Shown piece by piece: positions 3,383 to 64,000 of a stretch of 64,000 bases of DNA. Position numbers and translations under genes: made by a program. How positions within the stretch are numbered: position 1 is the first letter of the stretch; every line of letters starts with the position of its first letter. Source of the stretch: Lobosporangium transversale (lineage: Eukaryota); contig NW_019029019.1 in NCBI RefSeq assembly GCF_002105155.1, positions 248,001 through 312,000 on the forward strand, written 5' to 3'. The notes beneath the pieces are model-generated. The model saw only the letters and a list, made by a program, of their open reading frames with translations. It ran no database searches and was not told where the DNA came from.

Positions 3383-6300
3383 ATGGATTTACTATACGAC
3401 ACCCAAAAGTTGCGAATTTTACATGAGAAGGACCAGAAGATCAACTTGAGGAAAGGCACGATAGACACATTTGAAGAATATGGGTATGAATCTGTTGACC
3501 TGTATACCGAAAGGCTAGTAGACATGTGCTCGTACGAATTTCAGATCGAAGCAGCAAAGGCGCTGTTTGGCAAGATTCCAGACGACCACGATATCCGCCA
3601 ACTCAAACGCGTAAAAAATAACGCCGTTCGGGGTCCCATCGATGACGAACTGAATGAAGATGATGGAAAACCAAATGGAGACAGTGGCGAGGTTGACGGG
3701 CCTGACGCAGAGGACTGGGTTCTTACCGGGGAGCCGGAGATGTACAACTATAAAGACATTGTCATAGCTGCAATCACTAAGAGTTTTGGCGACGAGACAG
3801 ACCCCGAGCGGTACATCGGTTACGTGAGCCATATTTCCAAGATCCCACAAAGCGGCCTCCGTAGATATTTTTTTACATTTGACGCGCAAATATCTTCTTC
3901 CCAAGATATTGACGTGTTAATGTGGACGATTGGAAACCTTACATCCTACGAGCGTGTTGTGAATAGCCTTTCCGATAAGGATGCGATGAGGTCGATACCA
4001 AAGCTATTTTTAAAAGCTCCTGTGACAGACATTAGCCCCCTTACAGACGATACTGTAGACATTCCAGATGGTGTGCCCGAGTCGATGAATCAATCGCAAA
4101 AAGTTGCGATATCAAGGGCAATCCAGGAAGATGGGGACAAGGTGGTGCTGATCCAGGGTCCTCCTGGATGCGGTAAATCGACGACTATCGCTGAAATGAT
4201 CCATTTACTTACCTCTCATGACCGAGGTAACACAGGAATGCAGGTTCTGGCGTGTGCACAGACGAACGTTGCTGTGGCGGATCTTGCGTTTAAGTATGTT
4301 ACCACTAAAAAGCCTGCCAATTTTAAGTGTGTTATGGATATGAGGCCACCCAAGATAACCGATAGCCGCAAGAGAGCTGTGCTTGAGCCATTTACAATTA
4401 CCGCCCGATATCACCAAGTTGTCAATGCTGTGTTGCATACCATCATACGCGTCTTTGGGCGTACCCCCACCGCGTGTCACGGGAGCACGACAAGAAATGA
4501 AGTTAGGAGTATTGTGGCCTCCGATTTCAGGAAGTGTATGGAAAGTGGTTTAATCAAGCTACTGCCTCCGAAAGCCTGTAAGCTTCTTATGTCTATGGAG
4601 GCTGCGATCAGCGATTCTGCGCTGCCGTCTACCGATTTGACTCAGGTGAAACGTCTTGTTTCAGGAATGCGCAACGAACTAGAGCTCTTTTTTGAACCCG
4701 TCGAGCTTGAGTCGTTGCTCGAACTTTGCAGTGTTGATCAGCATACCGGCTCGTCGCCACGCTCTAAAACCATACCTATTTACGGGTGGGTGAAGCAAGC
4801 TCTTCTCGACGAAGCGTCTGTCGTATTTTGCACGATTAATATTGGGATATCGTTGACTTTTAAGAGACGCCTGGAAAGACTAGCGTATATCGTTGTCGAT
4901 GAGGCAGCGCAGGCGCTAGAGCCAGATGTGGCTGCACTAATGTGTGTTGATTCGTACTTTCGCCGCCTAATTTTGGTTGGAGACCCAAAGCAGCTTCGAG
5001 GATATTGTGCGTCCAACCGAGGCAAGCGCGAGATGATGGACCGCAGCCTCATGGAGCGCCTCCAGACATACCGGCTGTGCCATTCTACACTCCTCGATGT
5101 GCAATATCGCATGCATCAAGACATCTGCAATTTCGTGTCTCGAACCTTCTACGATAACAGATTGACCTCCGATGCGTCGATTCAAAGCAGGAGAGCTGTT
5201 ACAGCACTAGCACCTATTATGCACGTTATGTTCCTGGGATCTCAGATGGCACAATCGACAATCACGACAACGAGCGTGGTGAATATCGACGAGGCTAGAT
5301 ACATTGTTGCCCATGTATTCAAGGTGTTATTGCAATCCAGGCAGAATCAAGTCCTCTTGACTAATACTGTGACTAAGTCAATCTCTTATGCTGCCGTGAC
5401 GAAAAACACAGAAAAGGTAGAGACGCGACAGCCTGTAGAGGTCGCCAAGATCACTATCGGGATCATATGTATCTACAAGGCACAGGCCAACGTTATACGC
5501 TGTCTAGTCGAGAAGTCTCAAAACGCCTATAAAGGATTTGGAGCCGAAATAGTAGTTAACACCATAGATTCGTTTCAGGGGCAGGAGTGCGACATTATCT
5601 ATGTAGCGCTTACAAGGACTACACAAATTAACACTTTTATGGACAATGCTAATCGCGTTAACGTCGCAATTTCGAGAGCTCGGCACCATCTGATTGTAGT
5701 GGGAGATGCAAAACTTTCGCTGGCAGCCAAACAAGACGCCCCATCATCCTACTGGCATAGCCTGTGTATGGGCAGAAGATCCATGGTTATCGAACCAAAG
5801 TACATCAGGAGCATGCCTCAATACGATGGGCCGGAACGCGTTACTGTTATGAAGGCTGCGGTAATACAAGCAGCGCCGGCCACAATCAAAGAGATCATAG
5901 CTAAGGGACTGGCTGCCACAACTCCCATTTGGACTATCCACTACGAGAGACTCACGATAGACCCGAAAACCCCGCAAGGGATCCATATACTCGAATATGT
6001 CGTGCAAGCACTAGCCAGTGGAGATTTTGACACGGGAAATGGCGGTAGGACAACAAGACCCTTATTCGGTAAAAAACAAAAAGGGGCATCCCTGTTTTTC
6101 GTTACCACAGTGTGTGGGGTAGTGTGCCTTGCGTGGACCGTGAGAGTGCACGGGCAGCGCCAGGCCATTGAGCTTCTTGGCATCGGAGACAAAACATTCG
6201 TTGAAAAGACGGCCTGGCCGTTGCTCCGTCGCGACATCGAAGGGCAACCGGAATGGAAACTCTTTGCGTCTATGAGCCTGTGGTCGTCTGGTATAAGCGT

Positions 6301-9013
6301 AGACCTCTCCAAGGATATGCCAAAAAGTACGTCGTTGCTCTATGTGCCCGCAGATATAGAAATTCCTGTCGACGACGCCTTGGCGGATGTACCAGAGAAT
6401 GGGCACCTTCTGATCGACCACGACCACATTAAAGCCATGTCCTTTATGAGATCCAGCCCCACTATGGTCCTTGGAGGTGGGGGTACTGGCAAGACGGAGT
6501 GCATGCTGGATATGATTGAGCAGCAACTGGACATGGATACAGACCTTGGCAACGTGCAGCTCTATTTGGGAGCGACTGATTCGTTAGCCAACTGGTCGTC
6601 GATGAGACTATTAAAACGGGAGAACATAACGGAGCAAGGCTTTAAGATGGTATCGTTCACCAGTCTCCCATCTCTACTCTCAAAGCTCTACATGTCGAAT
6701 AGCACCATACGCGGGAAGCTCTTTGTGGATCGGGATATCTTTAGATCCGAATATATGGATGCCATGCCTGCAATGGTCCGCAGTATTGGCGCCGATGAGC
6801 TCTACGACGCTATCCACGCGCGCATGGATATAGAGACAGAGAACGGCATTAGTTCTCTTAGGCCAGAGTACAAGACAGCACACAAGGTCTATGAATTGGT
6901 CAAGACATCGCGCGGTCACTTCGACGCTTACGACCTTCACGCACTCGTCGAGCAAGACCCGCAACGATTAGTGGCTATGGCATCGAAGATCGCACGCATC
7001 TACTTAGATGAGGTCCAAGATATATCATGGACAATGTGGTCTGTAATCGAGGTAATGCTGTCTGCACGCACCTCGAGCGTGGTGTGTGCTGGTGATTTCA
7101 CACAGCGACTTACACCAGGGATTTCGGTCAATGGTATAAAAAGCCTCATCTATAAACACCTCCCCAAGAGTATGGAGACCATTAGATTCAAGACAAATTA
7201 TCGATCGGACCCCAGCATTATATCACTCGCAAACCGTATCCAATCGTACACCCACATGAGAGAACACGCAATGGAACCATCTCTCTACCCTCAGGAAAGC
7301 AGCAACTCCGTGACACTGGTAGAGATACAGGACATCGAGCATGAAAATGTAGCCGATGTGTTGCGCTATATCGGAGTTCCGTCCAACAACTATAGAGCTG
7401 CGATCGTCACATCGTCGTCATGGGCACATCGGCTTCGTGAGACTTTGGGTAAATCTCACAATGTCTTTAGTGCTTACGAATGCAAGGGTCTCGAGTTCGA
7501 CCTTGTTGTGTGTTGGGACCTCTTCAACCCAAGCATGGATGTAAAAACATCGACTCTAAGGCGTAACATGGGGGCTGCCACCTTAGATAAGGGCAATATT
7601 GAGGAAGACGAAAACTTTGAGATATACTTGAACCATCTCTACGTAACCGTTACAAGGGCACGCAAGCACCTTATAATGGTCGTTCCATCATGCGATAGAT
7701 CTAGCATTATGGTCAAGGCACTTGGGATTAGCGATATGGTCCATTACAGTGAGGTTCGGGAGCGTGGACCTCTGCCTGAAATTATCATTCCAATAGACGA
7801 GCTCAGCGTGTCTGACGATCTAAGAATGGCGATTGTGATGAGAGAAAGAGGATTACTCCAGCAGGCTCTCAACGTCTTTGAGCAGTACGGCGACGCTGCA
7901 CAAGCAGGGTTTACGAGAGCTCTAATCCATCGAAATGAACACAGGCTTCGCGGGGAAGACCACGAGATCCAGCTTTGTATTTCTGAGTGTTACGGTGTAA
8001 TCGAGGTATTGCAACAGTCGACGGATAGTGTTCTCAAAATCGAGGATGTAAAGCTATTCCTTACCCAGGCACTGGTCGCTGATAAGCAGTATGCTGAAGC
8101 ATGTCTGCTTTACAAGGAATTGGAGATGGAAGATGAACTGGTCGCGTGTCTAATCGAGGCAGTTGAATCAAAGTCTGGAGATGTGGTGCGGCTACGCTAC
8201 TTAATATCCGAAAAAGCTGTAGCTATCTGGGAGCATTTCAAGGACAACAAGAGATATGCAAGATTTGTTGTTGCGTTAATGCTTGTGTTTAAATCTTCGA
8301 CTGTAGACCTAATCCAGTCGATGATCACGCACATTCCATCCAAAGCAGGGCTCACTATGCTGCACAACTCCCTGATAGAGGCCGATAAAAGCGTATCCCC
8401 CATATGGGAAGTATTCCGAAGAAGAAAGTGGCTGCAGGTGGGGTCTGGATCGGAAGAGTCGGAGGAACTGACATTCTTAGAATGGAGCTCATTGCGGCGC
8501 CTCGATGGCCAACACTCCAACGAAGACTTGGTTTACATTATTTCTACTGGTTGCTTGCCAGAATCTCAGTCGTCAATAGCCTGTCTGTTTGTTGGGCCTA
8601 GAAACAACAAGACTACAAAAACCTTGTCGCTCAATATCCAATCGGGTGCTATGCTAAAGGCGTGTCGGTCGCTGGAAATACCTTTGAAGCATGTTTCAAC
8701 GAAGATGAGAGAGCTCTCCTGCCCCCTGACAGATTTTATGGCACTCCATTCCCAAATAAGTGGGGAAGAATCAAGAATGTACCTGCTTGCTGAGGCGTAC
8801 AAGACGCATAAGCTCAAGATGAGGGGTAGCGAGCACCAACTCACTCTCTTTAGATGGTGTGCTAAGATGAGTGGAGGTACGAACATCATCGATATGATCT
8901 GTACCATGCTTAAGGAGGACAGAGATATGTTGCTTGCCATCTACAGCCCAGATAACACCCTAAACGTAACACAGAAAGCACTACTTCAGGTGCTGAACGA
9001 GAGGGATATATAG
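3383..9013 (+). CDS. Dual-helicase protein copy 1 (Upf1/Sen1-like SF1B + UvrD-like SF1A + TPR-like tail; TRANK1-like), 1876 aa
   Basis: Helicase 1 motifs: MNQSQ, IQGPPGCGKS, CAQTNVAV, VVDEAAQ, LVGDPKQL, QYRMH, TIDSFQGQE, RVNVAISRAR. Helicase 2 motifs: GGGGTGKT, YLDEVQD, AGDFTQ, NYRS, KGLEFD, LYVTVTRAR. Confidence 0.93.
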   Translation: MDLLYDTQKLRILHEKDQKINLRKGTIDTFEEYGYESVDLYTERLVDMCSYEFQIEAAKALFGKIPDDHDIRQLKRVKNNAVRGPIDDELNEDDGKPNGDSGEVDGPDAEDWVLTGEPEMYNYKDIVIAAITKSFGDETDPERYIGYVSHISKIPQSGLRRYFFTFDAQISSSQDIDVLMWTIGNLTSYERVVNSLSDKDAMRSIPKLFLKAPVTDISPLTDDTVDIPDGVPESMNQSQKVAISRAIQEDGDKVVLIQGPPGCGKSTTIAEMIHLLTSHDRGNTGMQVLACAQTNVAVADLAFKYVTTKKPANFKCVMDMRPPKITDSRKRAVLEPFTITARYHQVVNAVLHTIIRVFGRTPTACHGSTTRNEVRSIVASDFRKCMESGLIKLLPPKACKLLMSMEAAISDSALPSTDLTQVKRLVSGMRNELELFFEPVELESLLELCSVDQHTGSSPRSKTIPIYGWVKQALLDEASVVFCTINIGISLTFKRRLERLAYIVVDEAAQALEPDVAALMCVDSYFRRLILVGDPKQLRGYCASNRGKREMMDRSLMERLQTYRLCHSTLLDVQYRMHQDICNFVSRTFYDNRLTSDASIQSRRAVTALAPIMHVMFLGSQMAQSTITTTSVVNIDEARYIVAHVFKVLLQSRQNQVLLTNTVTKSISYAAVTKNTEKVETRQPVEVAKITIGIICIYKAQANVIRCLVEKSQNAYKGFGAEIVVNTIDSFQGQECDIIYVALTRTTQINTFMDNANRVNVAISRARHHLIVVGDAKLSLAAKQDAPSSYWHSLCMGRRSMVIEPKYIRSMPQYDGPERVTVMKAAVIQAAPATIKEIIAKGLAATTPIWTIHYERLTIDPKTPQGIHILEYVVQALASGDFDTGNGGRTTRPLFGKKQKGASLFFVTTVCGVVCLAWTVRVHGQRQAIELLGIGDKTFVEKTAWPLLRRDIEGQPEWKLFASMSLWSSGISVDLSKDMPKSTSLLYVPADIEIPVDDALADVPENGHLLIDHDHIKAMSFMRSSPTMVLGGGGTGKTECMLDMIEQQLDMDTDLGNVQLYLGATDSLANWSSMRLLKRENITEQGFKMVSFTSLPSLLSKLYMSNSTIRGKLFVDRDIFRSEYMDAMPAMVRSIGADELYDAIHARMDIETENGISSLRPEYKTAHKVYELVKTSRGHFDAYDLHALVEQDPQRLVAMASKIARIYLDEVQDISWTMWSVIEVMLSARTSSVVCAGDFTQRLTPGISVNGIKSLIYKHLPKSMETIRFKTNYRSDPSIISLANRIQSYTHMREHAMEPSLYPQESSNSVTLVEIQDIEHENVADVLRYIGVPSNNYRAAIVTSSSWAHRLRETLGKSHNVFSAYECKGLEFDLVVCWDLFNPSMDVKTSTLRRNMGAATLDKGNIEEDENFEIYLNHLYVTVTRARKHLIMVVPSCDRSSIMVKALGISDMVHYSEVRERGPLPEIIIPIDELSVSDDLRMAIVMRERGLLQQALNVFEQYGDAAQAGFTRALIHRNEHRLRGEDHEIQLCISECYGVIEVLQQSTDSVLKIEDVKLFLTQALVADKQYAEACLLYKELEMEDELVACLIEAVESKSGDVVRLRYLISEKAVAIWEHFKDNKRYARFVVALMLVFKSSTVDLIQSMITHIPSKAGLTMLHNSLIEADKSVSPIWEVFRRRKWLQVGSGSEESEELTFLEWSSLRRLDGQHSNEDLVYIISTGCLPESQSSIACLFVGPRNNKTTKTLSLNIQSGAMLKACRSLEIPLKHVSTKMRELSCPLTDFMALHSQISGEESRMYLLAEAYKTHKLKMRGSEHQLTLFRWCAKMSGGTNIIDMICTMLKEDRDMLLAIYSPDNTLNVTQKALLQVLNERDI

Positions 9014-10199
9014 GTACGCTAGCTTAGACTTGTCCGACTGCAGATCCATCGAGAATCAACTATCATAAGTGATCCACATCTTCTTAAAATAAACCACTCT
9101 GATTTCTCCTCTCCCTGATTTGATATGAAATGTGGCCTTGTGTTAGCTTCAAGTTCTGTTTTTCCAATATGCCAAATATAGTTATTTGGAGCAGTAGAAT
9201 CCTGTTACTTTGTCTAAGATCATAAAGGTAGGGCTTTTTATTTAGTCCAACACACCATTTGCTCGGTGGTTCATGCGTAGTGGTAGCCAAAATGTTGGTA
9301 TCATCTATTTCTATTACTTGAGGCCATAGAGACCGTAAATAGCTTCAGATCTAGTTACGTAACTACAATCACATCATAAGCCTAACCATTGGCCTGATAG
9401 AGTTTTTTTTTATGTATTTTAGTCTACATTACACTATTCATCACGGAGTGGCAGCCCGGATCGGAAATTCATCTAACTAGAAATCATAACCTGAAAGGGA
9501 ACTAAAGCTCTACTTCTCAAGCCCCGTTTCGAACATCCACAACCTCTCCCCTCTACTTTTACCCTTTTCTTACAAAACCATAGTGCCGCTCAAGCCCACA
9601 AGCATATACCTTCCGGAAATAACTAATCTTGATAGTGAGTTGTCTCAACCATTTATACATAATATGGTTGATGGGCTCTTTCGAGCATCGTTTATGAGCC
9701 TGCTCTGTGTGCTCTCTAAAAAAATAGAAAAAAAAGGAGTGCGTTGATAGAAATGAACTAGACGGGCGACCCGTGGCTTCGCTCACGGTCGCTCCAGTCT
9801 AGCCTTTGCCTCGTGAGGCTCATTTACCCTCGTTGGGGTTCCAACACAAAATTGAACGTTTTTGACACAAAGGTTTCTTTTTTATTTATTAGGTATTAAA
9901 GTCTTTTTTTTTATTGACATTTTGTTGTTCTTCAAACAAAAGAGTTTCAGTGTCGGCTCGCTTTTTCAATAGATCATATAAACCGGCATGGAAACGAAAA
10001 TTTTGGGCAGCCCACGGGGCGGTAGCATCGGTGCCTCTCGGCGTGCTTACTGTTTCTTCAAGTGAAAGCGAATGAACAGAGAGTTGGTCTTCCCGATCTG
10101 ATTGATGGGCGGGGCGTGTAGGAGAGAGTCGAGAGTGAAGGGGAGAGCGAGAGCGAGAGCGAGGAGGATGTGGGGATTTTTGGCGTGGGGAAGATGGCT

Positions 10200-10722
10200 T
10201 TAGGAGGGTTTGGCAAGGGGAAGATGGCTGTAAAGGACTCTGGTGGGAGGAAGAAGAATGCGTGGGAGATAGGTTCCTGGGGGGGGGGTCTGGCGGCGTC
10301 GCTTGCTTTGATCGTCGTGTTGTTCCTGGTCATCGTCGTCCCAATTAAGCGAACGCTTTTGAGATTGGGGAATTGTATCAAGGCTATCATCATCACATGA
10401 CTGATTGAAAAAAAAAAAAAAAAAAAAAAATTATTATTTTGTCTAGTCTTCACGTACAACCATATGACTATGATAGAGGCCTTTACCTGGGAAGCAGGAG
10501 GGAATTGGTCGATTGAGGAGGATGAGGGCGAAAGTATTGTCTGAAAGAACGATACCAAATTCTCCTTGGTGTTAGTCAATTATAACTCTGATTCTCTGTT
10601 GATACCCAAGACTCAAAGTTTAATAGAAACTTACTTCACTGGTATTTGGGGTCAATAGAGGTGCTTTTATAGAGACCGTCTGACGACCTTGAGAAGTCTT
10701 GGTGATGGTGGAGGTAGAAGAC
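10200..10722 (-). pseudogene. Degenerate spliced accessory/cargo gene within Helitron
   Basis: ATG (MSSTSTITKTSQ...) followed by GTAAGT and GTAAAG donors and CAG acceptors. An intact frame could not be assembled. Confidence 0.3.
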
Positions 10723-11191
10723 ATAATGTATGAATGTACGTGTGTGAGAGCGAATGAGGAGTGTGTGTGAACTTTTTTTTTTGTGTGTGTGTGAATTTTT
10801 GAAAAGAAAAAAAAAAAAAAGAGGAAAAGATGGAAGAATCTAAATTTTCAATTACAAAAACTGGTATCACGGTCAGATGTATATACAAAGACACGTTTAC
10901 TATACAGAGATGTACAAATACACTTCTACTAAAATACAGAGACGCTAATTTACACTGATCATACAACATGTACACTAATTTACACTGGTCTTACAGCTAT
11001 ATATACGATAAATAACATTTCGGCCGAGTCGCGATGATGGATACAGAGAGAGCAAGGGTAGTAAGAGCTGGAGATATAGATATCGTGGGGACAGCAAGGC
11101 ATAGGCACAGTAGGAACAACAGAGACAGGGATAGTAGAGGGGCGGCAGGGACTGAAGATGTCAGCGACTTTTTTTTTTTTTTTTTTTTTTT

Positions 11192-11780
11192 CAATCTTGA
11201 AGGACTTCTTGGTACACAATATTTCGCGTGTATTTACAAAGATCCCTTGAATCACCTTTGATAAGTACCTTCAAATGCTTGGGGTCTGTACAGCGAGAAA
11301 GAGCCACATAGAGCTGGCCATGACTAAAAACAGACCGTGGGAGGGAGGTATATGCCAACATTCTGAAGAGTTTGTCCCTGAGCCTTATTGATGGTCATGG
11401 CGAAGGCAGGTTTCAAAGGGAAATGGCGCCGCTGGAATATGACTGGAGACGATCTATCATCAGTTGCATTGATATTGATTCGAGGGATGTAATGGATCGC
11501 TCCTTTGAATATTCCCGTCATTACTTCAGCTTCGATGACTTTGTTTCCAAGTTTATGCACAATGAGACGCGTACCGTTACAGAGACCTTCCTTTGGGCTC
11601 AGGTTCCTTATGCGAATGATGGGCTGACCGATCTTTAATTGCAGTATACTGGGAGGGATTCCGGGAGGATTTAAAGAATTAAGAAATTCCACAGTGTATG
11701 TTGCTGCTGCTACTGGGTCGTCAATATCAGGGATGGAATCTTGCCCATGATAGACCTTTGGAATGGTATGACTTGAAAAT
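11192..11780 (-). pseudogene. Helitron PIF1-family helicase C-terminal fragment
   Basis: EFLNSL..PGIPP..L.LK.G, RNL....[31 protein letters not shown]; after a frameshift [11 protein letters not shown] and [10 protein letters not shown]. Confidence 0.9.
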
Positions 11781-12378
11781 ATCTCTGTTGCCCAAGCATT
11801 TCGCAGAGCGTAGGCCATGTATATATGTGTTTCTCTACATTATTATTTTAGAAAACTAACACGATATGCAATGGTCCTCTTGACTTGATTATAGTCATGT
11901 TTCTTAGCACTCATGGCACAAGTTAGATTTGTCTGTAAGGGAAGAGGAGCTAAAGTGGAGAAGGAAGGTTTCTTATAGAAAAAAAGCGCGTTCCATATGA
12001 AATATCAAACATTTCACAGGAGCATTGTCATTGTCATTGCACAGACCATGTTTCTCTATGAAAATTAATTTGTTAAAAAATAAATCTCTTTGTTTTCTAA
12101 CTGTCATGTTTCTGTCATATATTTTTATCATGCCACATGAATGTATCGACACTTGAAGGAATTCATGTTTGAGGTTAAAGCATATGATATGATCAAGGCT
12201 TATAGGTAGTGTTTGAAGGAGCTCAATTGTTGTTTTATTATTATTACTATTATTATTATTATTATTATTATATAAAATAAAATTCTTATTATCATTTTTA
12301 TGCATCAATGGTTCAATGGCTGATGGTAGAAGCAGGCCATGATTGAAGGCTGATTATTTTTTTTTTTCAATGCATCAT

Positions 12379-12633
12379 GATTGAGATGATTGAGATGATT
12401 GAGATGATTGAGATCTGGTTGGTTATTATTTGTAATGTAAAGCCCAAAGTTGCGCTCTCATGATGATCGCTCATAATCATGATTGAGGTCACATGATGAT
12501 TGGGTCACATGATTGAGGTCCGATGATTGAAGTATGTATGCTCATTTCCTGAAAGGCACATGAAAATGGAATGACATGAAATGAAAATGGAATGACATGA
12601 AATGAAATGAAATGAAATGGAATGGAATGGAAT
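12379..12633. repeat. Short tandem repeats inside Helitron (GATTGAGAT x4; ATGAA/ATGGA runs)
   Basis: Directly visible. Confidence 0.7.
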
Positions 12634-12727
12634 TTATTTTAGATTTATGGACGGACGTATCATAGAGCAAGAATTATGAAACTATGAAATGAAATATATC
12701 ATATAATAGAGCAAGATCTATGAAATA

Positions 12728-15068
12728 GAGTCCTCGCCAAAAAGTCATAAACTGGATATATTTTACAATACTCAATTTGAATTAAAAATTTGAAAAATAA
12801 AAATTTACGTACGAAGACAAAAATGCATATATTTTTTGAATAGAAGGAATGAATTAGATGCATGGCCACCAAACCAATTCAATCTTCGTTTTTAATTAGA
12901 AATATTAGAATTTGCGAGAAATGGGCAACATCATTCTCAATCTCATTCTCGATCTCATCCTCATTGTCAACCTACTTTATTCGCAATCTTCAGATAGTAA
13001 AATGTCTTTCCCTTTTGATATCAATAACCTACTCTCATACAACGATCTTGGTGGTTGGTATAGCGAAGGAAATATCGACCAAATGATTTCAGGCACACCC
13101 TTCACTCCGCCTCGAAGATCGCCACAACTGCCCACTGAAGCCGATCTCTCCCCTATTAGGTCTCCTACCGAATATCAATGGATTACTCCTCCCAGAAACG
13201 AGCCAAGGAGTTCTACCTCATTAGAGCAATTCGGTGAGCGTCCCAATACCCTCGATTTAAATCCATTCTTGTCAGACAAACAAACTGGAGAGAGAAAAAA
13301 GGCATTTACACGCAGTAAAGCGTCCGTTACTAAAGACGAATACGCGATAATAGCTCATACATATAATGCTATAATGAATGCGCCACCAGCAGTCCAAGAC
13401 TGGTTTAAGAAGACAGACAACAGAGCAATGGACCTTTCGATTCTGATGGGTGTAGGGAGAAACACTTGTGTGGCAGCAATTAAATATGCACAAACAGGCA
13501 TCGTCGAAATGACAGGGCGAGGAAGAACTGGACGCCCTAAAAAAGAAGCGGACAAGGATTTAAACTCGAAGGTGCTGAATATCATAGTTGAATCAAACAA
13601 GAGCGGGACTCCTAATTCTGCGGGTTTAATTGCAAACCAACTGAAAGAAGACTTTGAAATCGACAGATCAGCAAGATCAATCACTCGCGACCTCCGTAAA
13701 ATGGGACTGTATTGGGGCAAAGGGATCCGACAGAACTTTTTGCACGACTCCAAGGAGAATATTGCCTTCCGAGCTACTTACCTGAAGCGCCGTCTTAAGA
13801 ATTTAAAACTAGTAGACGGCAGTTGGGTGCCTAGGACTCCAGAGGTCTTCTTGGACGAGTCTTACTGCCACATTGACCATGCTGCAGCAAGACGTTGGGT
13901 GCAAAGTGGCGGTGGTGTCATTAACGATGCAGGAAGGAAATCAATCATGGTTATATTTGCAGCCTTCATTGTATATTATGATGAAGCTGCTAAAAAGGTT
14001 GAAGGCAAATTCGTTAATGATAGCGTGTATGTTTGGCCATCAAAGGGACCAAAGCCTCAATCAAAAAAAGGCCAAGAGCAGGAGGCTGAACTGTGGGATG
14101 ACGTACCTGAGGAGATCAGGAATGCAGGGGTCGTGGCAACAGATCACGATTATCATGGAAACTTCAACGCTAGTTTGTTCGATAGTATCTTTAAGCGACT
14201 TTGTGAGAATCTCAATAAGATGGGACTTGGCCCTTGTAAAATCCATCTTGATGGCGCTTCATATCACTTTCACAAGAAAAACAGGGAACCAACCAAGAGC
14301 GACACTGTGAAAACTATCAAAGAGTGGCTCACGGGCAAGGAGATTGTTATTCCAACAAGGGAAAATGGAAAAGCACTGAACAAAAACGAGCTTATGGAAT
14401 TGGTTAACGCTCTTCCTGATGAGTCGTATTTCTCTATCAGTAAAATAGCCCAGGAGAATGGTGGACATGAAATCCTCAAGACTCCACCCTACCATTGCGA
14501 GCTACAACCTATTGAGAAGATCTGGGCAGTTGTGAAAAACATAATTGCCTCGAGAGCAATGGTGACAATGACATCCATCTTGCTGAAAAAAGGCTACTAA
14601 GCTTGTTTTCCCAGATTCCGTGTAAAGTCTTTTACTCTGTATGGAAGAAGTCTGTGAAAATTGGCATGAGATACTATAACGAGAGGAGTCATGCACAGGA
14701 AGAAATAGTCGAAGAGGTTTATCAAGAGGTTTTTGATGAAAACGAGCCTATTGTGGACCTTAGTGACACTTTCAAAGTCGACAATAGTGAGTGGGATGCA
14801 GAACTCATTAGAGTACTAAATCAAGAGCGAGCTGAAGCTGTTACCCTAGGCCCTGAGATAGTGGATCTTACGCTAGATGCTGGAAGCATGTTTAATGTGA
14901 TAGAGGATAGCGAGTCTGAGGACGAGCCTCTTATCAATCGAAAACGCTCTCGTAAAAATTAAAATTTTGAGTTTGTACGTATTTTTCCTGCGTCTAAAAG
15001 TGGAAGTATTCTATTCAATTTAAAAGCCTGAAAAATATATCCAGTTTATGACTTTTTGGCGAGGACTC
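12728..15068 (+). mobile_element. IS630/Tc1/mariner transposon, Sailor-like (DD87E)
   Basis: Perfect 37-bp TIRs GAGTCCTCGCCAAAAAGTCATAAACTGGATATATTTT (12728-12764 and 15032-15068), TA on both flanks, internal transposase. Confidence 0.93.
12921..14962 (+). CDS. DDE transposase, probable frameshift near 14555
   Basis: VFLDES, IHLDGASYH, PPYHCELQPIEKIW. An alternative frame from ~14555 (SNGDNDIHLAEKRLLSLFSQIP..W.K) runs into ORF 14603..14962. Start codon uncertain. Confidence 0.82.
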
Positions 15069-15265
15069 TATATCATATAATAGAGCAAAGATCTATGAAA
15101 CGAGTTATTACGATAAGGGAGAAACCATTTCGACTTTAGTATATAGATAAAGAGATTTGAAGGAATATGGCTTTCAACTCATCTCTCTCTTTCACACACG
15201 CCTTGTCACGTATAACACAGCCTTTTAGCTCTCCTATTACATACGACCATTGCCATAAAGGAAGG

Positions 15266-15306
<41 letters not shown>

Positions 15307-15334
15307 ACATTTTGTCTGCCATGAATGCTTTGAT

Positions 15335-17260: not shown

Positions 17261-17295
<35 letters not shown>

Positions 17296-18337: not shown

Positions 18338-19530
18338 TTGCCTCAGGTAACTTCACAGAAGTGCCTTTTTCAAAAGGCCCAGTGGGAAGCAAGGGAAATA
18401 GTGGGGGGGATAGCGTGGGAAGCAGCAGGAAAGGTAACAGAAGAAAAAGCAGTGGGGTCAGCAAAAGAGATAGCAGAGAAGGCGATAGAGAAGACGGTCA
18501 TGAAGCCAAGGAGCAAATCCTAATATTGATTCCCTATTAATGTGTATTGAGCGTTGGAGAAAACAATCGCAGAGCGACGTTAGCAGAGTGTATGGTCTTC
18601 AGAACATGTATCAGGACATTGCTGAAGTCGATAGTATGAGGTTTGAGAAGGAGCTTGCCAAGTTGGAGTGCACCTCTGCGACGTTCATTCATAAGATCCG
18701 ATCTGGCGAAGAACTACTGCTGACACGGACTCAACTAGCAGACTTCAAGAGGTTCCTAGCCATCATGACATACAGGAGCGAGCGCCGGAGGGAACAGTAT
18801 TACGAGTGTCGATTTGATATTATGACACTTCTATCGATTCGAAAACACATGTCCCAAAACAATATTGACAGAGTTCAAGACGTATGGTTCGAGAATCTCA
18901 AATGAATCATCAAGACCCCTCACGACGAAATCATTAAGGAGAGCTCAGCTATCGATCCGAAAGGCGTCAAGACTCCCATGGATACTATGTTTGCTTTGAG
19001 CAAATATAAAGGACCTATTTACGTTGCAGAACTTATGGACTATTATAACTTAGTGTGCAACTACGTGTGTGTCTGGCAAGCGGAAGAAGGGCCTGAATTT
19101 ATCCTAACCGACAAGTGCTCTGTTGGGTTCGAAGGTGAGGATGCTATCCACTTCCAAAGCTTCTATGTTGTGTCTCCGAAATATATGGTCGTTCTTGTGA
19201 ACCGTCTTTACATGTGGGACCTTATGAAGACCGTGGGTCTCCGGAAGTCGTGGTCTGGAGGCGAGCTCCATGCCAATCCAGTTGTCATTAATACGAAAAA
19301 GCTTGTGAGAGGTGCGAAAGACTTCACTCCGACAGACGTGTTCAAATTCAAAAGGATTGTCGCCCCAAAAGAGAAGGTATATCTCGGCAGCAGCTCATTT
19401 TGGGTGGAGGTACATAACATAAAAGTCCTATATCTCCATTAACAGGTCCTTAAGATGCTGCGATAAGGCTAAGGAATCTTTATATACTAACAAATTTGAT
19501 TGCCGTTTCATGAAGCGCGAAACATTAGGA
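18338..19530 (+). pseudogene. DUF4238 pseudogene
   Basis: RVYGLQNMYQD, FEKELAKLE, LTRTQLADFKRFLAIMTYRS, EFILTDKC..FEG, VVSPK. Start region deleted; TGG>TGA stop at ~18903. Confidence 0.8.
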
Positions 19531-20809
19531 TATGGCGACATTATATTTTATGTATTTTTAATTCCAATGCATCTTATCCTGAAGGACGCAGCTCCTACAC
19601 TATGGTTAACCCGATGTAATAACAGTCTCCTGCTGAGAAGAAAGAACGGAAACATAAAAAGGCAACTATCTGTGTGGACCAATAATAGATGGAGGATGGA
19701 GGAAGAAAGAAGTCTGTAAAAGTCTTCGAGAAAAGGGATGTGCCAGAGATAACACAATAATATTTGGAGAGTTTTGACAACGTCAACAGCATTTACAGTG
19801 GACATTGGTGTTTAAAGAACACATGTTTAGTGCTATTTTACTATACCAACCCCTGCTTGTGTAGAGGATCTGTTTGCCAAGCAACCAAAAAATAAGCGGA
19901 ACGATGTTTGGTTGTTGATCAATGCTTTGAGGCATGAACCACATGATAGACAGTGTTTATATTATACGAGCCGGAGACGGTGGCGAAGCCACGGTCGGCT
20001 CTTGCCTCGTTAGAAAATTTAATGCTTAGCCTCGTAAGACAACAAAAAGAAACATTGCCTACAGCAGCAAAAGGTTTATATTTTGACATAGGAATGAAGA
20101 CAATAAACTCACGTAGGCCTTTGGCCTTTTACTACTGTAAAAATTATGTGTAAACTGCATGTTTTTTTTATTACAAAACTAAAATACAAAGCTAAAATAC
20201 AGAACTAAAATACAGTAGATAAAACGCAATAAAGTAGAATACAAAATATACAAAATATACACAATAAAATACAGACGAAACTACAATCAAGAGGGAGAAT
20301 ATCTGGTAATCACAACATTTGATAGATTAACGGCGGCGAGGAGGTAACGCAGTAAATGGCAATCAAAAGACAACGTGGCTATAAAGCATCTTTGAAGACA
20401 ATGTTCCGTGTGTATGTTCCTAGCCCTCATTAAGGGGACTCAAGATAGCGCGCTCAATGAGCATCTCAGGAAGGAGTCTAGCATTTTCGATATCCGGAAA
20501 TATAGTACGAAAAAATTAAAAAAATTAAAAAAATAAAAAATAAAAAATAAAAAATAAAAAATAAAAAAAAAAAAGGAAATAAAGAGTGAACAAAATGTAG
20601 CTCACCTTCGCCTTTGTGTGGGTCTCTCATTTTCGATATCAAGGTCATGGTCAAAGCTTCGCTCGCGCACTGCTCCATGATTGGCTTCATTTTGGATATG
20701 GCTGCTAAATCAATGGATCAATGGACAGTAATAATCCGTTATAAAGTCAAATCGATGGCGAGGAAGAGTATGATTATATGAAATATTTAAAGTACGTAGA
20801 GCCCACCTT

Positions 20810-39456: not shown

Positions 39457-39484
39457 ACATTTTGTCTGCCATGAATGCTTTGAT

Positions 39485-42244: not shown

Positions 42245-42279
<35 letters not shown>

Positions 42280-43646: not shown

Positions 43647-44950
43647 ATGTCTCAAGATCAGTTCCATCACTATATACCACGCTTCATATTGAAGAGCTTC
43701 TCTGATTACCTCCAACTGAAACCTTCAAGTATTTTCTCACCAAATGCCTCAGGCAACTTCACAGAAGAGGCTTTTTCAAAAGGCCCAGTGGGGAGCAAGG
43801 GAAATAGTGGGGGGGATAGCGTGGGAAGCAACAGGAAAGGTAACAGAAGGAAAAGCAGTGGGGTCAGCAAAAGAGATAGCAGAGAAGGCGATAGAGAAGG
43901 CGGTCATGAAACCAAGGAGCAAATCCTAATATTGATTCCCTATTAATGTGTATTGAGCGTTGGAGAAAACAATCGCCAGAGCGACACTAGCAGAGTGTAT
44001 GGTCTTCAGAACATGTATCAGGACATTGCTGAAGTGGATGATAATATGAGGTTTGAGAGGGAGCTCGCCAAGTTGGAGTGCACCTCTGCGACGTTTATTC
44101 ATAAGATCCGATCTGGCGAAGAACTACTGCTGAGGTGGACTCAACTAGCAGACTTCAAGAGGTTCCTAGCTATCATGACATACAGGAGCGAGCGCCGGAG
44201 GGAACAGTATTACGAGTGTCGATTTGACACTTCTATCGATTCGAAAACACATGTCCCAAAACAATATTGACAGAGTTCAAGACGTATGGTTCGAGAATCT
44301 CAAATGGATCATCAAGACCCCTTACGACGAAATCATTAAGGAGAGCTCAGCTATCGATCCGAAAGGCGTCAAGACTCCCATGGATACTATGTTTGCTTTG
44401 AGCAAATATAAAGGACCTATTTACGTTGCAGAACTTATGGACTATTATAACTTAGTGTGCAACTACGTGTGTGTCTGGCAAGCGGAAGAAGGGCCTGAAT
44501 TTATCCTAACCGACAAGTGCTCTGTTGGGTTCGAAGGTGAGGATGCTATCCACTTCCACAGCTTCTATGTTGTGTCTCCGAAATATATGGTCGTTCTTGT
44601 GAACCGTCTTTACATGTGGGACCTTATGAAGACCACGGGTCTCCGGAAGTCGTGATTTTGGGGCAGGCTCCATACCAGCCCAGGTGCCATATATACGAAA
44701 AGGCTATGGGTGATCCGAAAGGCTTTACTCCAATAGACATGTTAAAATACTCAAGCGTTGCTGTTTTAAAAGAGAAGGTGTATCTCTGCAACAGTATCCT
44801 CTTGGATGCAAGCCCCAAGTGCATAGCATACAGACCCAATGTACCCAAGTATAGGTCCTTGAGTTACTATGGCAAGACTAAAGAAGATCTGTTTACCTGA
44901 AGCGCGAAGTGTTGACCAATCTTACGGCAGAGATGAACAGAATATATTGC
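43647..44950 (+). pseudogene. DUF4238 pseudogene, most complete copy
   Basis: N-terminal signature MSQDQFHHYIPRFILKSF plus downstream motifs; 8-bp deletion at ~44227 relative to 18817; stop at 44653-44655. Confidence 0.85.
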
Positions 44951-45873
44951 TCCTAGGTTCTCCTGAAAGACCCTTCTAGGATATTGTACTTCTTCCACTT
45001 CTCCTCATAAACAAAGATTATAGTTGTTAAGTACAGCTTGGTGAAAATAAAGCAATGGACTTCTTAGCCAGCACTAATAAGGAGCCGATATGGAAGCTTG
45101 GAGGAGGATGAGTATAGGAATGAGGATGGCGACATTTTTATTTGGTTCTCATTTTTAATTTTATTTCTAGCGCATCCCATCTTGAAGGATGCGACTTCTG
45201 TATGATGACCAACTCGATACAATAGCAGTTATTCTGTTAAGAAGAAAGAAAGAAGACATGAAAAGACAGCTATCTGTGTGGACCAACTATGAATGGAGGG
45301 TAAAAGAGGAAAGAAGTCTATGAAAGTCCTCGATGGGCAGGGGTGCGCCAGATAATAATATGGTAATATTCTGGAGAGCTTTAACAGCTTCAACCAGTAT
45401 TTACCATACAATGGGCGCTGGTCTTAAAAGAACACATGTTTAGCGGTATTTACTTATACCAGTCCCTCCTTGTGTAGAGGATGTGTTGGCGGAACAATGG
45501 TCTACTGAATGGTCTACGAAGGACGACCTATTCACATTGTCATAGGTACCATGGACGTATGTGTGTGTCACCTTTCTTCATTGAAAATCCGACGAGAAAT
45601 AAAGAAAAATAAACTAAATAAAAAGATCCCTCTGCCCTGCAACTCTGATCTACATCTACTTCTCGAGCCAAAAAGGGGTGGTGTGGGTGGGACATACGTC
45701 CATGGTACCTATGACAATGTGAATAGGTCGTCCTTCGTAGACCATTCAGTAGACCATTGTCTACGGTACCATGTCCGTATGTGGCTCCAGAGGGATCGCC
45801 AAAGAGAACTAAACTAAAACAAAACTAAAACTAAAAGAAAACTGAACGAAATGAACAACTAACTAAAGAAAAT

Positions 45874-46840
45874 CTAGCCTAGAGTGCTCATGGACATGTT
45901 GTTGGAGGTGGCACTCGACAAACGGTAGTGCTTCTCGAAGACTTTCGGGGACGACCAATTCCCCTGCACCATGATATCAGCCACTGGTACGCCTGCTATA
46001 GCCGCGAGCGTAGAACCTAAGGCTCGGAGCTTAGGAGCTTTCTTGTCTCCTAAATCCATCAGCGAAGAAATCCTACTCATGTGGGAGCCAATAGTAGTCG
46101 CACGCGCCGGCTGGGTGTGGTCTTTCACAAATCTAATCAAAGGTACAATGCTTCTTGTTGGGTCCTTCGGATGAGGAGAGGTAGTGGAAGGACAAGACAG
46201 CCTGTCCAGGTAAGCGGTGTATGCGTCGACAGGGCATAGCTTCTTGTCAAAGTGAGAACCAATGGTCACATGCTTAATGATACGTTGCCCATCACTCTTC
46301 TCTTTTGGGAAAACAACAACAAGCTGAAGCTTCCCTAACACAATCTTGGAGAGACTGACATCTACACATCTGATGTCGTCTGGTCTCATGAAGCCACAGA
46401 CGCCTAAGAGCCAACACAGCTTCCATGTAAGCTCCTCAAAAGGCAACTCCATATTTGCTGATGACTGCCGAAAATGGTCCAAAACAGGTGTGATGTCAAA
46501 GTGACCAGACCTGGACTCAACGACACCTTCTTGCTTTCCAGCCTTGAGGAACTGGCGGTAGTATTCATCTGATCGTACTCTCTCTGGGTCACGAAATAGG
46601 GCGAGGACAGCCGACTTCATGGTCATCAGCGTGGACCACTTCAAATTGCGAGCGACCCGCACGTAGTGTAGCCAGTTCACTACTGGGATCGCGGGGTTAA
46701 TCCCTTGTTCGAACGAGCCCTCTTTCAGCCAAGTGACGAATTCAGCTTGATGCTTTTCGTACTCTCGCTTGGTGCTCTTGGATCCTTTGTGAGCACAGAT
46801 AAACTCAGTCACCGCTGGCGAGAGGCCATCTATGAGCATC
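45874..46840 (-). CDS. DIRS tyrosine recombinase (C-terminal part of the 1222-codon frame 45874..49542)
   Basis: GFMRPDD, PKEK, LCPV, KLRALGST, QGNWSS..VFEKHYR. True start uncertain. Confidence 0.88.
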
Positions 46841-48578
46841 CTCGTCCTCTTACTCTCCACGCGGTAAGGCCCCAGTGTGGAATCGGTAAAGGGGGTTGGG
46901 TCGCCATTGCCTGTATCTTCGGGAACCAAATCGCCGATGGCCAAAATGGAGTAATTATGGTCGCTTCCAGGCCTTCCTGGTCTAGCTTCTGCAGGATCCT
47001 TGGAAGTAAGTTCCATGGAGGACAGATGTAAAGGTTGCCCAAGTGGCTCCACTTGTGTCTCAGCGCATCGAAGTCCACTGCCAAAGGATGAGGTTTCCAT
47101 GTCATGAACTGAGGAAGCTGGTTGTTGCTGGGCGATGCAAAGAGGTCTATCCGATGAGGCCCCCACTGCTGGTCTAGACGACGGAAAAATGACGGGTCCA
47201 GCCTCCATTCGAGCTGCGCTTGCATCCGGCGTGATGGTGCATCTGCTGGATTGAATACTGAAGGTACATATGTGGTCCTGAGTCTTGTGCCTGTTGCTAG
47301 ACAATGCTTCCATATTTTGTCCGCCAGGTCCATCAGAGGTTGTGAACGAGTTCCGCCGAACCGGTTGATGTAAGCGATGGTGGTTGTGTTGTCGATTACT
47401 AGGTTGAGCATCCTCCCTTGTGTTTGCGGTAGAGTGACTGCGTAGTACACGGTTAGTAACTCTTTTAAATTGATGTGTTGGTGGCGTATGTTTGGTGGCC
47501 ATAGCCCTGTCCAAGTGCGCTGCCCTATGACGATCCCCCAGCCTTGGTCGGAGGCGTCTGTGTACACGTCCATCTGAGTTGGCGACTGAATCCATGACGT
47601 CCCGTTCCACTCCTTGAGTTGGTGTGTCCACCAATCCAGATCGGCTCGAGCTCTGTCGTCCAGTGAGATCGTCGCTTCCCAAGATGACCCCTGATGGCTG
47701 AGCGCTCTGTTCTTCAATGCCAGAAGATGCCGCGTCATTAGACGAGCTGGAAATACTGCTGCTGTCGTCGCCATGGCTTTCCCTATGAACGTAGCCAAGT
47801 TGCGAACCGTCGTCCATCCCTTGCTGAGCATCTTCGCTGCTTCTCGCCGTATGTCCCTGACCTTGGACTTCGGTACCGAGAGGGTCATGTCGGTGGTGTT
47901 GATGGTGAAACCCAGATGATCTAGACATTTCGTTGGCATCAGAGAGGATTTCTCCTTGTTGATGAGGAATCCAAGAGACTTGAGTTTGTCCAGGACAAGA
48001 TTCGTGTGCTCTTCTGCTTGGGCTTTGGAGCTGGCCATGATCAACAGATCGTCGATGTAAGCTGTCAGCCGTATTCCTCGACGCCTCGCCCATCTCAACA
48101 CCGGGCGTAGGACCTTCGTGAAGACTAACGGCGACAGTGACATCCCGAAAGGTAGAGTGCGAAACTGATACAGCTGACCCTTCCACTGAAACTGAAGGTA
48201 AGGACGAAAATGTGGATGAATCAGCACATGAAGGAAAGCATCTTTGAGATCGATGCTCGTCAAATAATCGTTCTTCTGAAGGGTATTGCATACTACCTGA
48301 ATCGTCTCCATCTTGAACGAGTCTGTGATGATAAATTGATTGAGAGGACGTAGGTTGAGGACAGGCCGGAGGTCCCCTGTCTTCTTGGGGATAGTAAACA
48401 AACGACTCTGGAAACCAGGTCCCGAAGCGTGCTCTATGGCTTTTTTGGCCAGAAGTGCGATCACTTCGTTCTCTATCGCCAGTGTCTCCTCCTTGGATAG
48501 ATGCGGGGAAAGGGCTCTTGATGTGTGTGTTATTGGAGGTTGTCTGTGGAAGGGAATCTGAAAACCGTTTCCAATCAC
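46830..48578 (-). CDS. DIRS reverse transcriptase / RNase H / adenine-methyltransferase-like ORF
   Basis: RPVLNLR.LN, IDLKDAF, LPFGM..SP..FTK, YIDD; TDAS..GWG, IN.KEL, DN.T, NPADAPSR; IDLFAS, CPPW. Confidence 0.93.
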   Translation of the reverse strand: MIGNGFQIPFHRQPPITHTSRALSPHLSKEETLAIENEVIALLAKKAIEHASGPGFQSRLFTIPKKTGDLRPVLNLRPLNQFIITDSFKMETIQVVCNTLQKNDYLTSIDLKDAFLHVLIHPHFRPYLQFQWKGQLYQFRTLPFGMSLSPLVFTKVLRPVLRWARRRGIRLTAYIDDLLIMASSKAQAEEHTNLVLDKLKSLGFLINKEKSSLMPTKCLDHLGFTINTTDMTLSVPKSKVRDIRREAAKMLSKGWTTVRNLATFIGKAMATTAAVFPARLMTRHLLALKNRALSHQGSSWEATISLDDRARADLDWWTHQLKEWNGTSWIQSPTQMDVYTDASDQGWGIVIGQRTWTGLWPPNIRHQHINLKELLTVYYAVTLPQTQGRMLNLVIDNTTTIAYINRFGGTRSQPLMDLADKIWKHCLATGTRLRTTYVPSVFNPADAPSRRMQAQLEWRLDPSFFRRLDQQWGPHRIDLFASPSNNQLPQFMTWKPHPLAVDFDALRHKWSHLGNLYICPPWNLLPRILQKLDQEGLEATIITPFWPSAIWFPKIQAMATQPPLPIPHWGLTAWRVRGRGCS

Positions 48579-48643
48579 GGAGCGGACCCACCTGTCGTCC
48601 GTGAGGAGCCTCCAAGCCCTCGAGTAGAGGTGCAGACGGCCCC

Positions 48644-49573
48644 CTACTGGCTCTTGTTGGCGCTGCCGCGTCCCCGTCCACGGCTGCCTCTGTAAAAATA
48701 CTGTCCCTGCTGGTTGTTATGCATGGGCTCTCCATACCCGTAAGTGAGCTGAGGAGGTGTGGCTTGTTGTGCTTGATGATGATTCGCTGGTGAATAAGGT
48801 TGCGATTGTGATGGAAATTGCTGGAACTGTTGCTGCTGGTGGGGGTACATGTTAAAGTAAATACCCCTGCTGCGAGAACCGGAATTGCGACCGGATCCTC
48901 TGTTTTGCAAAGCTGTCTTGCGAGGCTTGCTGGCCTCCTGGTACTCCTCAGCAGCTTTAATTCGGGCTGCAATATCATCTTTAGTGATAGTTGCAGTCTT
49001 TTCATGATCAGGGGCTGGCTTGAGACCCTTTGCGTACACAAAATTATCCATGCGCAGATCGGTGATTTGGCGTGCTGTAACGGCCAGATGAGATCGCATG
49101 ACATGCCCAAAATCTGCGACGATCTGCCGTAATGCAGGATCGTGCACTTTGTGAAAGTATTCTGCCAGGAATTCGTCCAAGGGTCGCGTAGCGTGGGCCT
49201 GACGTTCCTGTAGTTGGGATAACCACTTGTCCACTCGTTGAAAAGAAGTGGTCTCCTGAGGCCAAGGCAACTCAAGAGAGGGCGCTTTGTACTGCTGATC
49301 TGGGTTCTTGGGATAGAGGACGTACTCGGTGAGGATGTTATCGTCGCCAGAGTTGTCCGGGGGACGGAAGAAATGAGAGCCGTCAAGGGAAGGTACAGCC
49401 GCTTTGAGGGTATCAGAGAGGACAAGTATCTTGGCCTGTGGGCGATCAATGGTGATGGGGGAAGGGGAAGAGGAGGAAGGGTTGGCCTGCGTAAGGGCAG
49501 CCACCTGCTGACGAAGAGTGTTGATTTCATGAAGGAGTGCATTATGAGTGTTGTCGGTAGAATTGTCGCTCAT
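48644..49573 (-). CDS. DIRS gag-like ORF1
   Basis: First ORF after the ITR (MSDNST...), coiled-coil start and Gln/RG-rich end; assignment is positional. Confidence 0.7.
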   Translation of the reverse strand: MSDNSTDNTHNALLHEINTLRQQVAALTQANPSSSSPSPITIDRPQAKILVLSDTLKAAVPSLDGSHFFRPPDNSGDDNILTEYVLYPKNPDQQYKAPSLELPWPQETTSFQRVDKWLSQLQERQAHATRPLDEFLAEYFHKVHDPALRQIVADFGHVMRSHLAVTARQITDLRMDNFVYAKGLKPAPDHEKTATITKDDIAARIKAAEEYQEASKPRKTALQNRGSGRNSGSRSRGIYFNMYPHQQQQFQQFPSQSQPYSPANHHQAQQATPPQLTYGYGEPMHNNQQGQYFYRGSRGRGRGSANKSQ

Positions 49574-50664
49574 TGGAACGAATAGATAATAGTCTGCAAC
49601 GGATGAGTTCCAGGAGCGACGAGAAGAAAGATGTAGATCAGAGTTGCAGGGCAGAGGGATCTTTTTATTTAGTTTATTTTTCTTTATTTCTCGTCGGATT
49701 TTCAATGAAGAAAGGTGACACACACATACGGACATGGTACCGTAGACAATGTTTGGTTGTTGATCAATGCTTTGTGTGACATGAACCACATGATAGACAA
49801 TGTTTATATTAATTCTTTGATGAATGGTCAATTGATGGGATTAACTATTGTAGAGGGGAGGAGAATGGGTGTGGGAACATCATATAAGACCGTCCCTCGT
49901 CCCAACAATTATTATCAGATCAATATCCTCAGTAATAAAAACCGGGCTCTTGCTGATTATCCCCCGAAAAAATGCATCAAAAAGTAGAAAGGGTGATTTG
50001 GTGTGGAAAAAAGGCTTACATGTATGTACACTGCTATGTTTGCTTGTTATGCAGGTGCTGTGCTCAGAAATGTGCATTTTTTACTTCGCCATTTTTTCTT
50101 TGGACCAATATAACTAAGGATTTTCCGCTGTTACTTCCATCATCTCGCTTGCTCAGCTCTTCTGGCCTGTTCTCTGTTCTTCATACTGAATCAAGACAAT
50201 CATCCTTACACTTGCATCAATTCGCATCCTTTTTCAATTGCTTCCTCCATTACTCATCGATCATCGTGACTGTTTTTTAAAAACACGCGTTTATTTTATT
50301 TGCGCCACTGAACCTGGAATTAGTTTGACATACGTTAAGGTAATGGTGATAGCAAATAGTCATTTGAGATGTGGGGCGGGTGTAGAGGCGTTGGCGGCTT
50401 GGGGGCCCATCATTCTTACATTCGATATTGCGCGCGATGTAAGCTGATCTCGGTTCTAAACACGTTTATGACCGGCGTGCTTAACCGGCGCACACTTTTT
50501 CTATGCCGACCTTGCTTAAAAGTGGTGCCCAGCTTTTATTTCGATTTATGTCACAGTATGAAAACACTCGATAATGTAATGTTATTAACCTTTTTTTTTT
50601 TTTTTTTTTTTAATGGATTAAAACCGAACAGAAAAAAAGAACCTCCGGGGTCTTGCACGTTTCG

Positions 50665-57212: not shown

Positions 57213-57670
57213 GTCCCAAAAAATATTGACAGAGTTCAAAGCGTGTGGTTCGAGAACCTCAAATGAATCATCAAGACCTTCACGAAGAAATCATTAAGGG
57301 AGGCTCAAAAATTGATTTAAAAAATACCCTGGCCCCCATGAATTATAAGTTTACTTTGAGCAAATATAAAGGACCTATTCACGTCCCAGAAATTAGGAGG
57401 CGAACTCCATGCCAATCCAGCTGTCATCTATACGAAAAAGCTTATGAGAGGCGCGGAAGACTTTACTCCAACAGACGTGTTCAAATACAAAAGGATTGTC
57501 GTCCCAAAAGAGAAGGTATATCTCGGCGGCAGTTTCATTTTGGGTGGAGGTACATAACATACATGTACAGGTCCTTGAGATACTACGATAAGACTAAGGA
57601 ATCTTTATATACTCACAAATTTGGTTGCCGTTTCATGAAGCGCGAAGTATTAGAATATGACGACATTTTA
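57213..57670 (+). pseudogene. DUF4238 remnant
   Basis: NIDRVQSVWFENLK*, SKYKGPIHVPE, FTPTDVFKYKR; internal deletions. Confidence 0.75.

Positions 57671-64000: not shown

Follow-up and report, generated by a model that had tools for sequence, protein, structure and literature searches.

Why does the soil fungus Lobosporangium transversale (Mortierellaceae) carry a row of large genes that each encode two different helicase-type motors, and do these genes serve in defence, as the initial annotation of the locus had proposed? Little is known about how early-diverging fungi defend themselves against viruses other than by RNAi. The array supplies intact, intronless, expressed paralogues for testing. 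If the defence reading is true, an immune module shared from prokaryotes to eukaryotes would be added; if not, the locus would simply show a helicase family, so far unstudied, that has expanded in an ordinary way.

A six-frame listing of the window (the whole stretch of DNA analysed, 64 kb) revealed a tandem array of at least five stop-free open reading frames (ORFs) of ~5.6 kb, H1 to H5, which lie head-to-tail on the + strand. The five intact same-strand ORFs described before were thus confirmed, and both helicase matches were found in 5/5. The limits of the ORFs were counted from a Met common to the copies:

3383..9013, + strand: H1 double-helicase gene, 1876 aa, intronless, transcribed in the RNA-like run X5
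23250..28856, + strand: H2 double-helicase gene, 1868 aa
32897..38530, + strand: H3, a 99% copy of H1, 1877 aa
50665..56262, + strand: H4 double-helicase gene, 1865 aa
58891/58942 to 64000, + strand: H5 double-helicase gene, open at the window end

H5 is completed by the database model P0044 (1912 aa), whose contig is shared with the window. H1 and H3 are 99% identical, while all other pairs share 75-78% identity. H1 and H3 appear to be genuine separate copies because their flanks differ by a Helitron with an empty site at 39302; in the DNA runs X1 and X3 the empty-site joint is present and the filled site is covered too. An AATAAA motif is conserved 3' of 4/4 complete copies. Pyrimidine tracts ending in AG were noticed just 5' of several starts (3300-3383 in H1 and the equivalent positions), and since database models also add short N-terminal extensions, a small 5' exon is possible. 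Two further database models, P0003 with an altered C-terminus and P0005 without the second Walker A motif, look like gene-model artefacts. A further L. transversale assembly contains near-identical pieces of H1/H3, H4 and H5, together with five more fragments that are only 73-93% identical to the nearest of H1-H5; therefore, more paralogues or divergent alleles exist. Run X7 carries the same species label and is without the array, but the high-copy DIRS and Tc1 elements are absent from it as well, and no presence/absence polymorphism was inferred.

Each protein combines four parts, given here for H1:

4085..5713, + strand: SF1B (Sen1/Upf1-class) helicase core, AAA_11 and AAA_12, with a variable insert at aa 346-470
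5930..6247, + strand: RelE/YoeB-like domain, aa ~850-955, with the catalytic Arg/Arg/His-Asp positions replaced
6410..7702, + strand: TRANK1-type UvrD/Rep-fold ATPase, aa ~1010-1440
7793..9013, + strand: TPR-like alpha-solenoid tail, from a fold model and fold matches

In the first motor, the Pfam families AAA_11 and AAA_12 were matched in 5/5 copies (E 1e-31 to 1e-42) and the SF1B motifs I-VI are all present. The best matches among solved structures were SETX (2e-30) and Upf1 (5e-27). In an SF1B tree, which holds no Upf1 or ZNFX1 row, the first motor fell, with a support of 81, on the side of Sen1/SETX and apart from MOV10L1 and HELZ2. The assignment as Upf1-like stands as far as the Sen1/Upf1 class of SF1B helicases is concerned, but within this class the tree weakly suggests a Sen1/SETX-sided placement. 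No SEN1_N, Upf1 CH or NFX1 zinc-finger domain was among the Pfam matches (best 25 families per protein). Sen1/SETX, Upf1, MOV10, HELZ2 and ZNFX1 have the SF1B core in common with H1-H5, whereas H1-H5 carry a second ATPase in the same chain, exist in several copies and evolve fast. PADLOC matches of H1 and H5 to MkoA and GajB were judged to be generic helicase matches and rejected.

The second motor was identified by the Pfam family UvrD-helicase in 5/5 copies (E 2e-10 to 5e-8) and is a UvrD-type ATPase of the TRANK1 family, in agreement with its earlier description. Its motifs I, II, III-Q, IV, V and VI are intact. However, the claim of two complete SF1 motif sets holds for the first motor only, as the second has lost the Q-motif residue (H here, Q/E in 69/70 homologues) and the motif III aromatic residue (I here, F/Y in 70/70 homologues). 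The predicted helical tail was borne out by a solenoid model of H1 (pLDDT 70-90) and by matches to TPR-protein folds (E ~1e-3 to 1e-4). The suggested profile search, run with Pfam, recovered AAA_11, AAA_12 and UvrD but no TPR match in the tail; no ankyrin match was obtained in H1-H5 either.

Newly noted here, compared with the initial annotation, are a RelE-like domain between the motors and neighbouring genes of the DUF4238 and zf-3CxxC families. The linker of H1 matched a profile of 35 eukaryotic members with a probability of 91.5% (hhalign, E 9e-7; reversed control 0.1%), and this eukaryotic profile matched the bacterial profile with 96.5%, while the H1 domain compared directly with the bacterial profile reached only 7% probability. 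With the bacterial N-terminal profile, in turn, structures of YoeB/RelE were matched as the top 5 of 12 (E 0.001-0.03). From this chain we infer, transitively, that the H1 linker domain is homologous to RelE/YoeB. Pfam gave no RelE model in the H1 linker and only weak ParE_like/Gp49 matches in 3/16 bacterial domains. In a first fold model, linker and UvrD part remained at pLDDT<50; a fold model of the H1 linker displayed a strand-helix-three strands-helix order (pLDDT 46-87, domain within a larger model). The catalytic residues of RelE/YoeB, which we take to be basic residues on strands 2-3 and a C-terminal His, have changed in H1, H2, H4 and H5: the first Arg position reads T, R, T and S, the second C, C, Y and C, and His-Asp has become KT. 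Because these Arg/Arg/His-Asp positions are replaced, the RelE-like domain of H1-H5 is likely inactivated. In contrast, both the Arg and the His of RelE type are retained in 10/10 rows of animal proteins named TRANK1 (P0197-P0205, P0207), on which grounds animal TRANK1 may be a ribosome-directed RNase, and bacterial relatives keep R in 67/67 and H in 66/67. This yields a domain hypothesis that is cheap to follow up, namely that the RelE-like domain of the TRANK1 family looks active in animals and bacteria but dead in the double-helicase lineages.

In the open literature we found no assigned mechanism for TRANK1 and no paper linking it to UvrD or RelE. A toxin-antitoxin paper from 2003 may mention RelE-helicase fusions, and a prior description is thus possible.

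Full-length relatives of H1-H5 were found in Mortierella sp. AM989 (73%) and Lunasporangiospora (43-46%), and fragments in Dissophora and Gryganskiella. A profile of the C-terminal half, compared with 1.84 billion representatives, gave three matches at E<=1e-30, all of them from Mortierellaceae, and 17 at E<=1e-10; the best 150 profile matches include double helicases of two chytrids, Pelomyxa and one plant, and plant SF1B+UvrD clusters head the Atlas match list. Records from chytrids, plants and Pelomyxa (e.g., KAJ3118095.1, KAJ3330548.1, KAK9742962.1, KAH3744837.1) contain single chains that unite an SF1B helicase, the linker domain and UvrD, and the idea of a fungus-specific double-helicase family had to be abandoned. 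No published function of these fusions was found in the open literature. Under mixture models the H clade joined the chytrids both in the linker+UvrD tree (SH-aLRT 98, 38 rows) and in the SF1B tree (SH-aLRT 99, 36 rows); these are quick trees with long H-clade branches (3.2 and 1.9, respectively). FastTree (120 rows) left the H clade unplaced. Since both motors group separately with the chytrid double helicases, the SF1B+UvrD fusion is old; congruent ancestry is shown with the chytrids, and the SF1B tree does not settle monophyly with the plant and Pelomyxa proteins. The domain order is the same in all these fusions, whereas H1-H5 differ by a branch about three to four times longer (3.2 versus 0.7-0.9 for the chytrid kin), an eroded Q motif and motif III, the tandem arrangement and gene conversion. 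The array is thus a very divergent new branch of a known, unstudied family, and its architecture is not categorically new.

Animal TRANK1, its relatives in fungi and plants, and a family of bacterial single-gene proteins all share a core of RelE-like domain, UvrD-type ATPase and TPR. Animal TRANK1 and fungal TRANK1-like proteins have the RelE-like domain, the same UvrD-type ATPase and a helical repeat tail as in H1-H5. Animal TRANK1 carries ankyrin/TPR repeats and the RelE-type Arg/His but no SF1B helicase, whereas H1-H5 add a Sen1-class motor and have lost Arg/His. The bacterial single-gene RelE-UvrD-TPR/ankyrin proteins have the same three-part core, but with R/H kept and without an SF1B module. 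Genome contigs often contain this bacterial family, with 556 stretches confirmed for a single clade, and the best 80 loci (L001-L080) belong mostly to Bacillota and Fusobacteriota. Among 535 pattern matches in metagenome contigs no relative was confirmed, and no upstream SF1B module was present at 79 metagenome loci of the wider family, the one match having overlapped the UvrD match. A phage match with 22% identity was dismissed as a generic UvrD match.

The neighbourhoods of the bacterial genes were mixed. No PADLOC model matched the bacterial proteins along their length. In 28 of the 80 loci, picked for long flanks, 11/106 neighbours in 9/28 loci matched PADLOC, a count that has no control set; no conserved operon was found among these 28 loci, and a known defence system was absent from 3/3 annotated plasmid contexts. 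At L049:9161-13726, a 1522-aa SF1B helicase with an MkoA-like match is encoded two genes away from the bacterial gene; this arrangement, an unfused counterpart to the fusion in eukaryotes, was seen in 1/28 loci. A preprint (bioRxiv 10.64898/2026.09.30.754977) mentions a RelE-like nuclease-helicase fusion beside Tiamat defence genes, which may differ from the bacterial family considered here.

Self-comparison of the window showed that the repeated unit exceeds the helicase gene and consists of DUF4238 plus helicase, in line with the local tandem amplification proposed before. The remaining features of the window are:

3..590, + strand: zf-3CxxC (RTP-like) ORF, Pfam E 1.7e-10, open at the 5' window edge
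1524..1913, + strand: truncated DUF4238 remnant upstream of H1
9757..15146, - strand: non-autonomous Helitron with a CTAG + hairpin end, a TC end, an empty site between A and T at 39302 and a Pif1 fragment
12719..15077, + strand: Tc1/mariner element with TIRs and a DDE_3 ORF, nested in the Helitron
18340..19626, + strand: frameshifted DUF4238 remnant upstream of H2
30579..31747, + strand: frameshifted DUF4238 remnant upstream of H3
43647..44930, + strand: frameshifted DUF4238 remnant upstream of H4
45494..49752, - strand: DIRS retrotransposon with gag-like, RT-RNase H-Dam-like and recombinase-like ORFs and inverted termini
57222..57757, + strand: DUF4238 remnant upstream of H5

In 5/5 units the helicase is thus preceded by the remains of a DUF4238 gene, either frameshifted or truncated. 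Because all copies are broken and had no PADLOC match, the linkage of DUF4238 to the helicases may be passive. Remnants of the zf-3CxxC 3' end lie at 17416 and 42400, and further cluster genes may lie upstream of the zf-3CxxC ORF, which is itself covered by X5 contigs. Rfam and tRNA searches gave no match.

The spacers had been called TE-rich; Helitron, Tc1 and DIRS elements are indeed present, yet much of the spacer DNA is duplicated unit DNA. The Helitron inserted after the H1/H3 duplication, and the transposons are later insertions, each within a single unit. The DIRS label follows from the domain set and the terminal repeats, read with what is typical of the family; the element inserted ~0.9 kb 5' of H4. 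Its long ORFs overlap, and because it is represented by deep contigs in the DNA runs and a long contig in X5, it is likely multi-copy and transcribed. A DDE_3 fragment lies near 40.5 kb. Very deep X5 contigs match the 9.8-10.7 kb part of the Helitron at ~90-95% identity, and this part is likely an expressed gene fragment that was captured from elsewhere. A RecQ zinc-binding-like fragment is duplicated at 15334-15889 and 39484-40039 and is spliced in X5 (15886-15966).

Intronless ORFs, TE-rich surroundings and a patchy distribution might suggest that the unit is itself a mobile element or viral insert, with the helicase as its own replication gene. We regard this as very improbable, in keeping with the initial annotation: the repeated unit contains no transposase, Rep or recombinase and has no termini on its flanks, the TEs are insertions found in single units, all copies are adjacent and on the same strand, both motors group with cellular proteins of chytrids, and no relative was confirmed among 49 pattern matches in viral contigs.

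Selection on the copies was assessed with our own codon models on the four sequences H1, H2, H4 and H5. Omega was 0.47 overall (p(omega=1) 6e-41), with values of 0.67 for the N-terminus, 0.47 for the SF1B core, 0.72 for the insert, 0.41 for the RelE-like domain, 0.28 for UvrD and 0.40 for the tail; the insert did not differ from 1 (p 0.14). The copies are thus under purifying selection, which is weakest in the N-terminal half. Comparison of M8 with M8a gave p 6e-5 for the N-terminal half and p 0.09 for the C-terminal half with the TPR tail; when codons near gaps were dropped, the N-terminal half gave p 0.03 on the best tree and 0.008-0.03 over three trees. This is a weak sign of positive selection, obtained from four sequences; it is sensitive to alignment gaps, and gene conversion could have inflated it. 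Tracts of H4 and H5 are 99-100% identical against ~80-87% elsewhere, and H1 and H3 show no difference over aa 121-1140 but drop to 94% identity at the start; these tracts therefore point to gene conversion.

Fungal NLR clusters likewise show tandem paralogues, conversion and an NTPase + TPR layout, but H1-H5 have SF1 motors instead of NACHT/NB-ARC, and their variability lies in the N-terminal half and not in the repeats. The NTPase + TPR layout, the divergent paralogues in the further assembly and the toxin ancestry of the RelE-like domain would fit a role in non-self recognition (allorecognition, or recognition of bacterial endosymbionts or antagonists), in which the ATPase-TPR half would act as an NLR-like switch leading to growth arrest or cell death. 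We consider this unlikely, as no STAND NTPase (NACHT/NB-ARC) or death-effector domain was found above cut-off in H1-H5, where P-loop cross-matches stayed below curated cut-offs, the TPR tail is a conserved and not a variable part, and the RelE-like domain is without catalytic residues.

A more serious contender, although one we hold to be less probable than defence, is that unequal crossing-over amplified a general RNA-metabolism or translation quality-control enzyme, with the extra copies kept for dosage or under relaxed selection. The dominance of purifying selection, the marginal positive selection, the duplication of whole segments with broken passengers included, the Sen1/SETX-sided first motor and the repeat-rich region all agree with it. 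However, at least five copies have stayed intact at dS ~0.35-0.4 while the linked DUF4238 has decayed in all units, and a very long branch and few named carriers misfit a housekeeping gene, so that the exclusion of a slowly evolving single-copy gene is upheld. Moreover, the tandem layout likely recurs in Dissophora, where a gene model on a 4.3-kb contig joins the tail of one copy to the start of the next and suggests tandem copies, unless this is an assembly join.

We give about an even chance to the reading that the array is an RNA-level defence (surveillance) locus. It is favoured by the intact amplified copies beside decayed passengers, by fast evolution and by the RNase-toxin ancestry of one domain, as well as by antiviral homologues of the DUF4238 and 3CXXC neighbours and by TRANK1 as an interferon-stimulated gene. 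A DUF4238 protein protects against T7 (PMC9122126), 3CXXC is the antiviral domain of RTP4 (PMC8172065), and TRANK1 is treated as an interferon-stimulated gene that is up in virus-positive chicken cells (PMC10269786) and appears in the table of an ISG screen (PMC6880163). The weak selection signal, the conserved TPR tail, the broken DUF4238 copies and the mixed bacterial neighbourhoods speak against it. In such a surveillance protein, the SF1B motor would load on single-stranded RNA and track 5'->3', and the RelE-like domain, being dead, would attach to RNA or the ribosome but would not cut. Since the Q motif and the strand-stacking aromatic are lost, the second ATPase would serve as a nucleotide switch or short-range remodeller and not as a processive helicase, while partners would be brought in by the TPR tail. 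As output, foreign RNA from a mycovirus or retroelement would be stripped or stalled, and the paralogues would differ in their RNA-contacting N-terminal half.

A broader proposal, which we put forward tentatively and judge rather doubtful, is that RelE-like domain, UvrD-type ATPase and TPR form an unrecognised immune module of bacteria and eukaryotes. In bacteria, basidiomycetes and animal TRANK1 the module would be active as a ribosome-directed RNase. In chytrids, plants and Mortierellaceae its RelE domain would be dead, and a Sen1-class RNA motor would have re-wired it; the present array would be its fungal defence island, built with DUF4238 and RTP4-like genes.

Finally, expression, which had been named as a check on the locus, was found for H1. 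Only run X5 contains GT..AG-type joints (15886-15966 and 49844-50020), and this single run was taken as RNA by its behaviour, which is a guess. X5 contigs cover H1 without differences over 3580-4347 and 8107-9094, where H1 and H3 differ; H1 is therefore transcribed, if X5 is RNA. One of these contigs ends at 9094, right after the AATAAA of H1. H4 was covered by small low-depth pieces only and H5 by almost nothing, from which no ranking of expression was derived. A spliced X5 contig on the - strand (49681-50309, intron 49845-50019) leaves H4 and enters the DIRS end, and a divergent transcript from the region 5' of H4 may thus read into the DIRS element.
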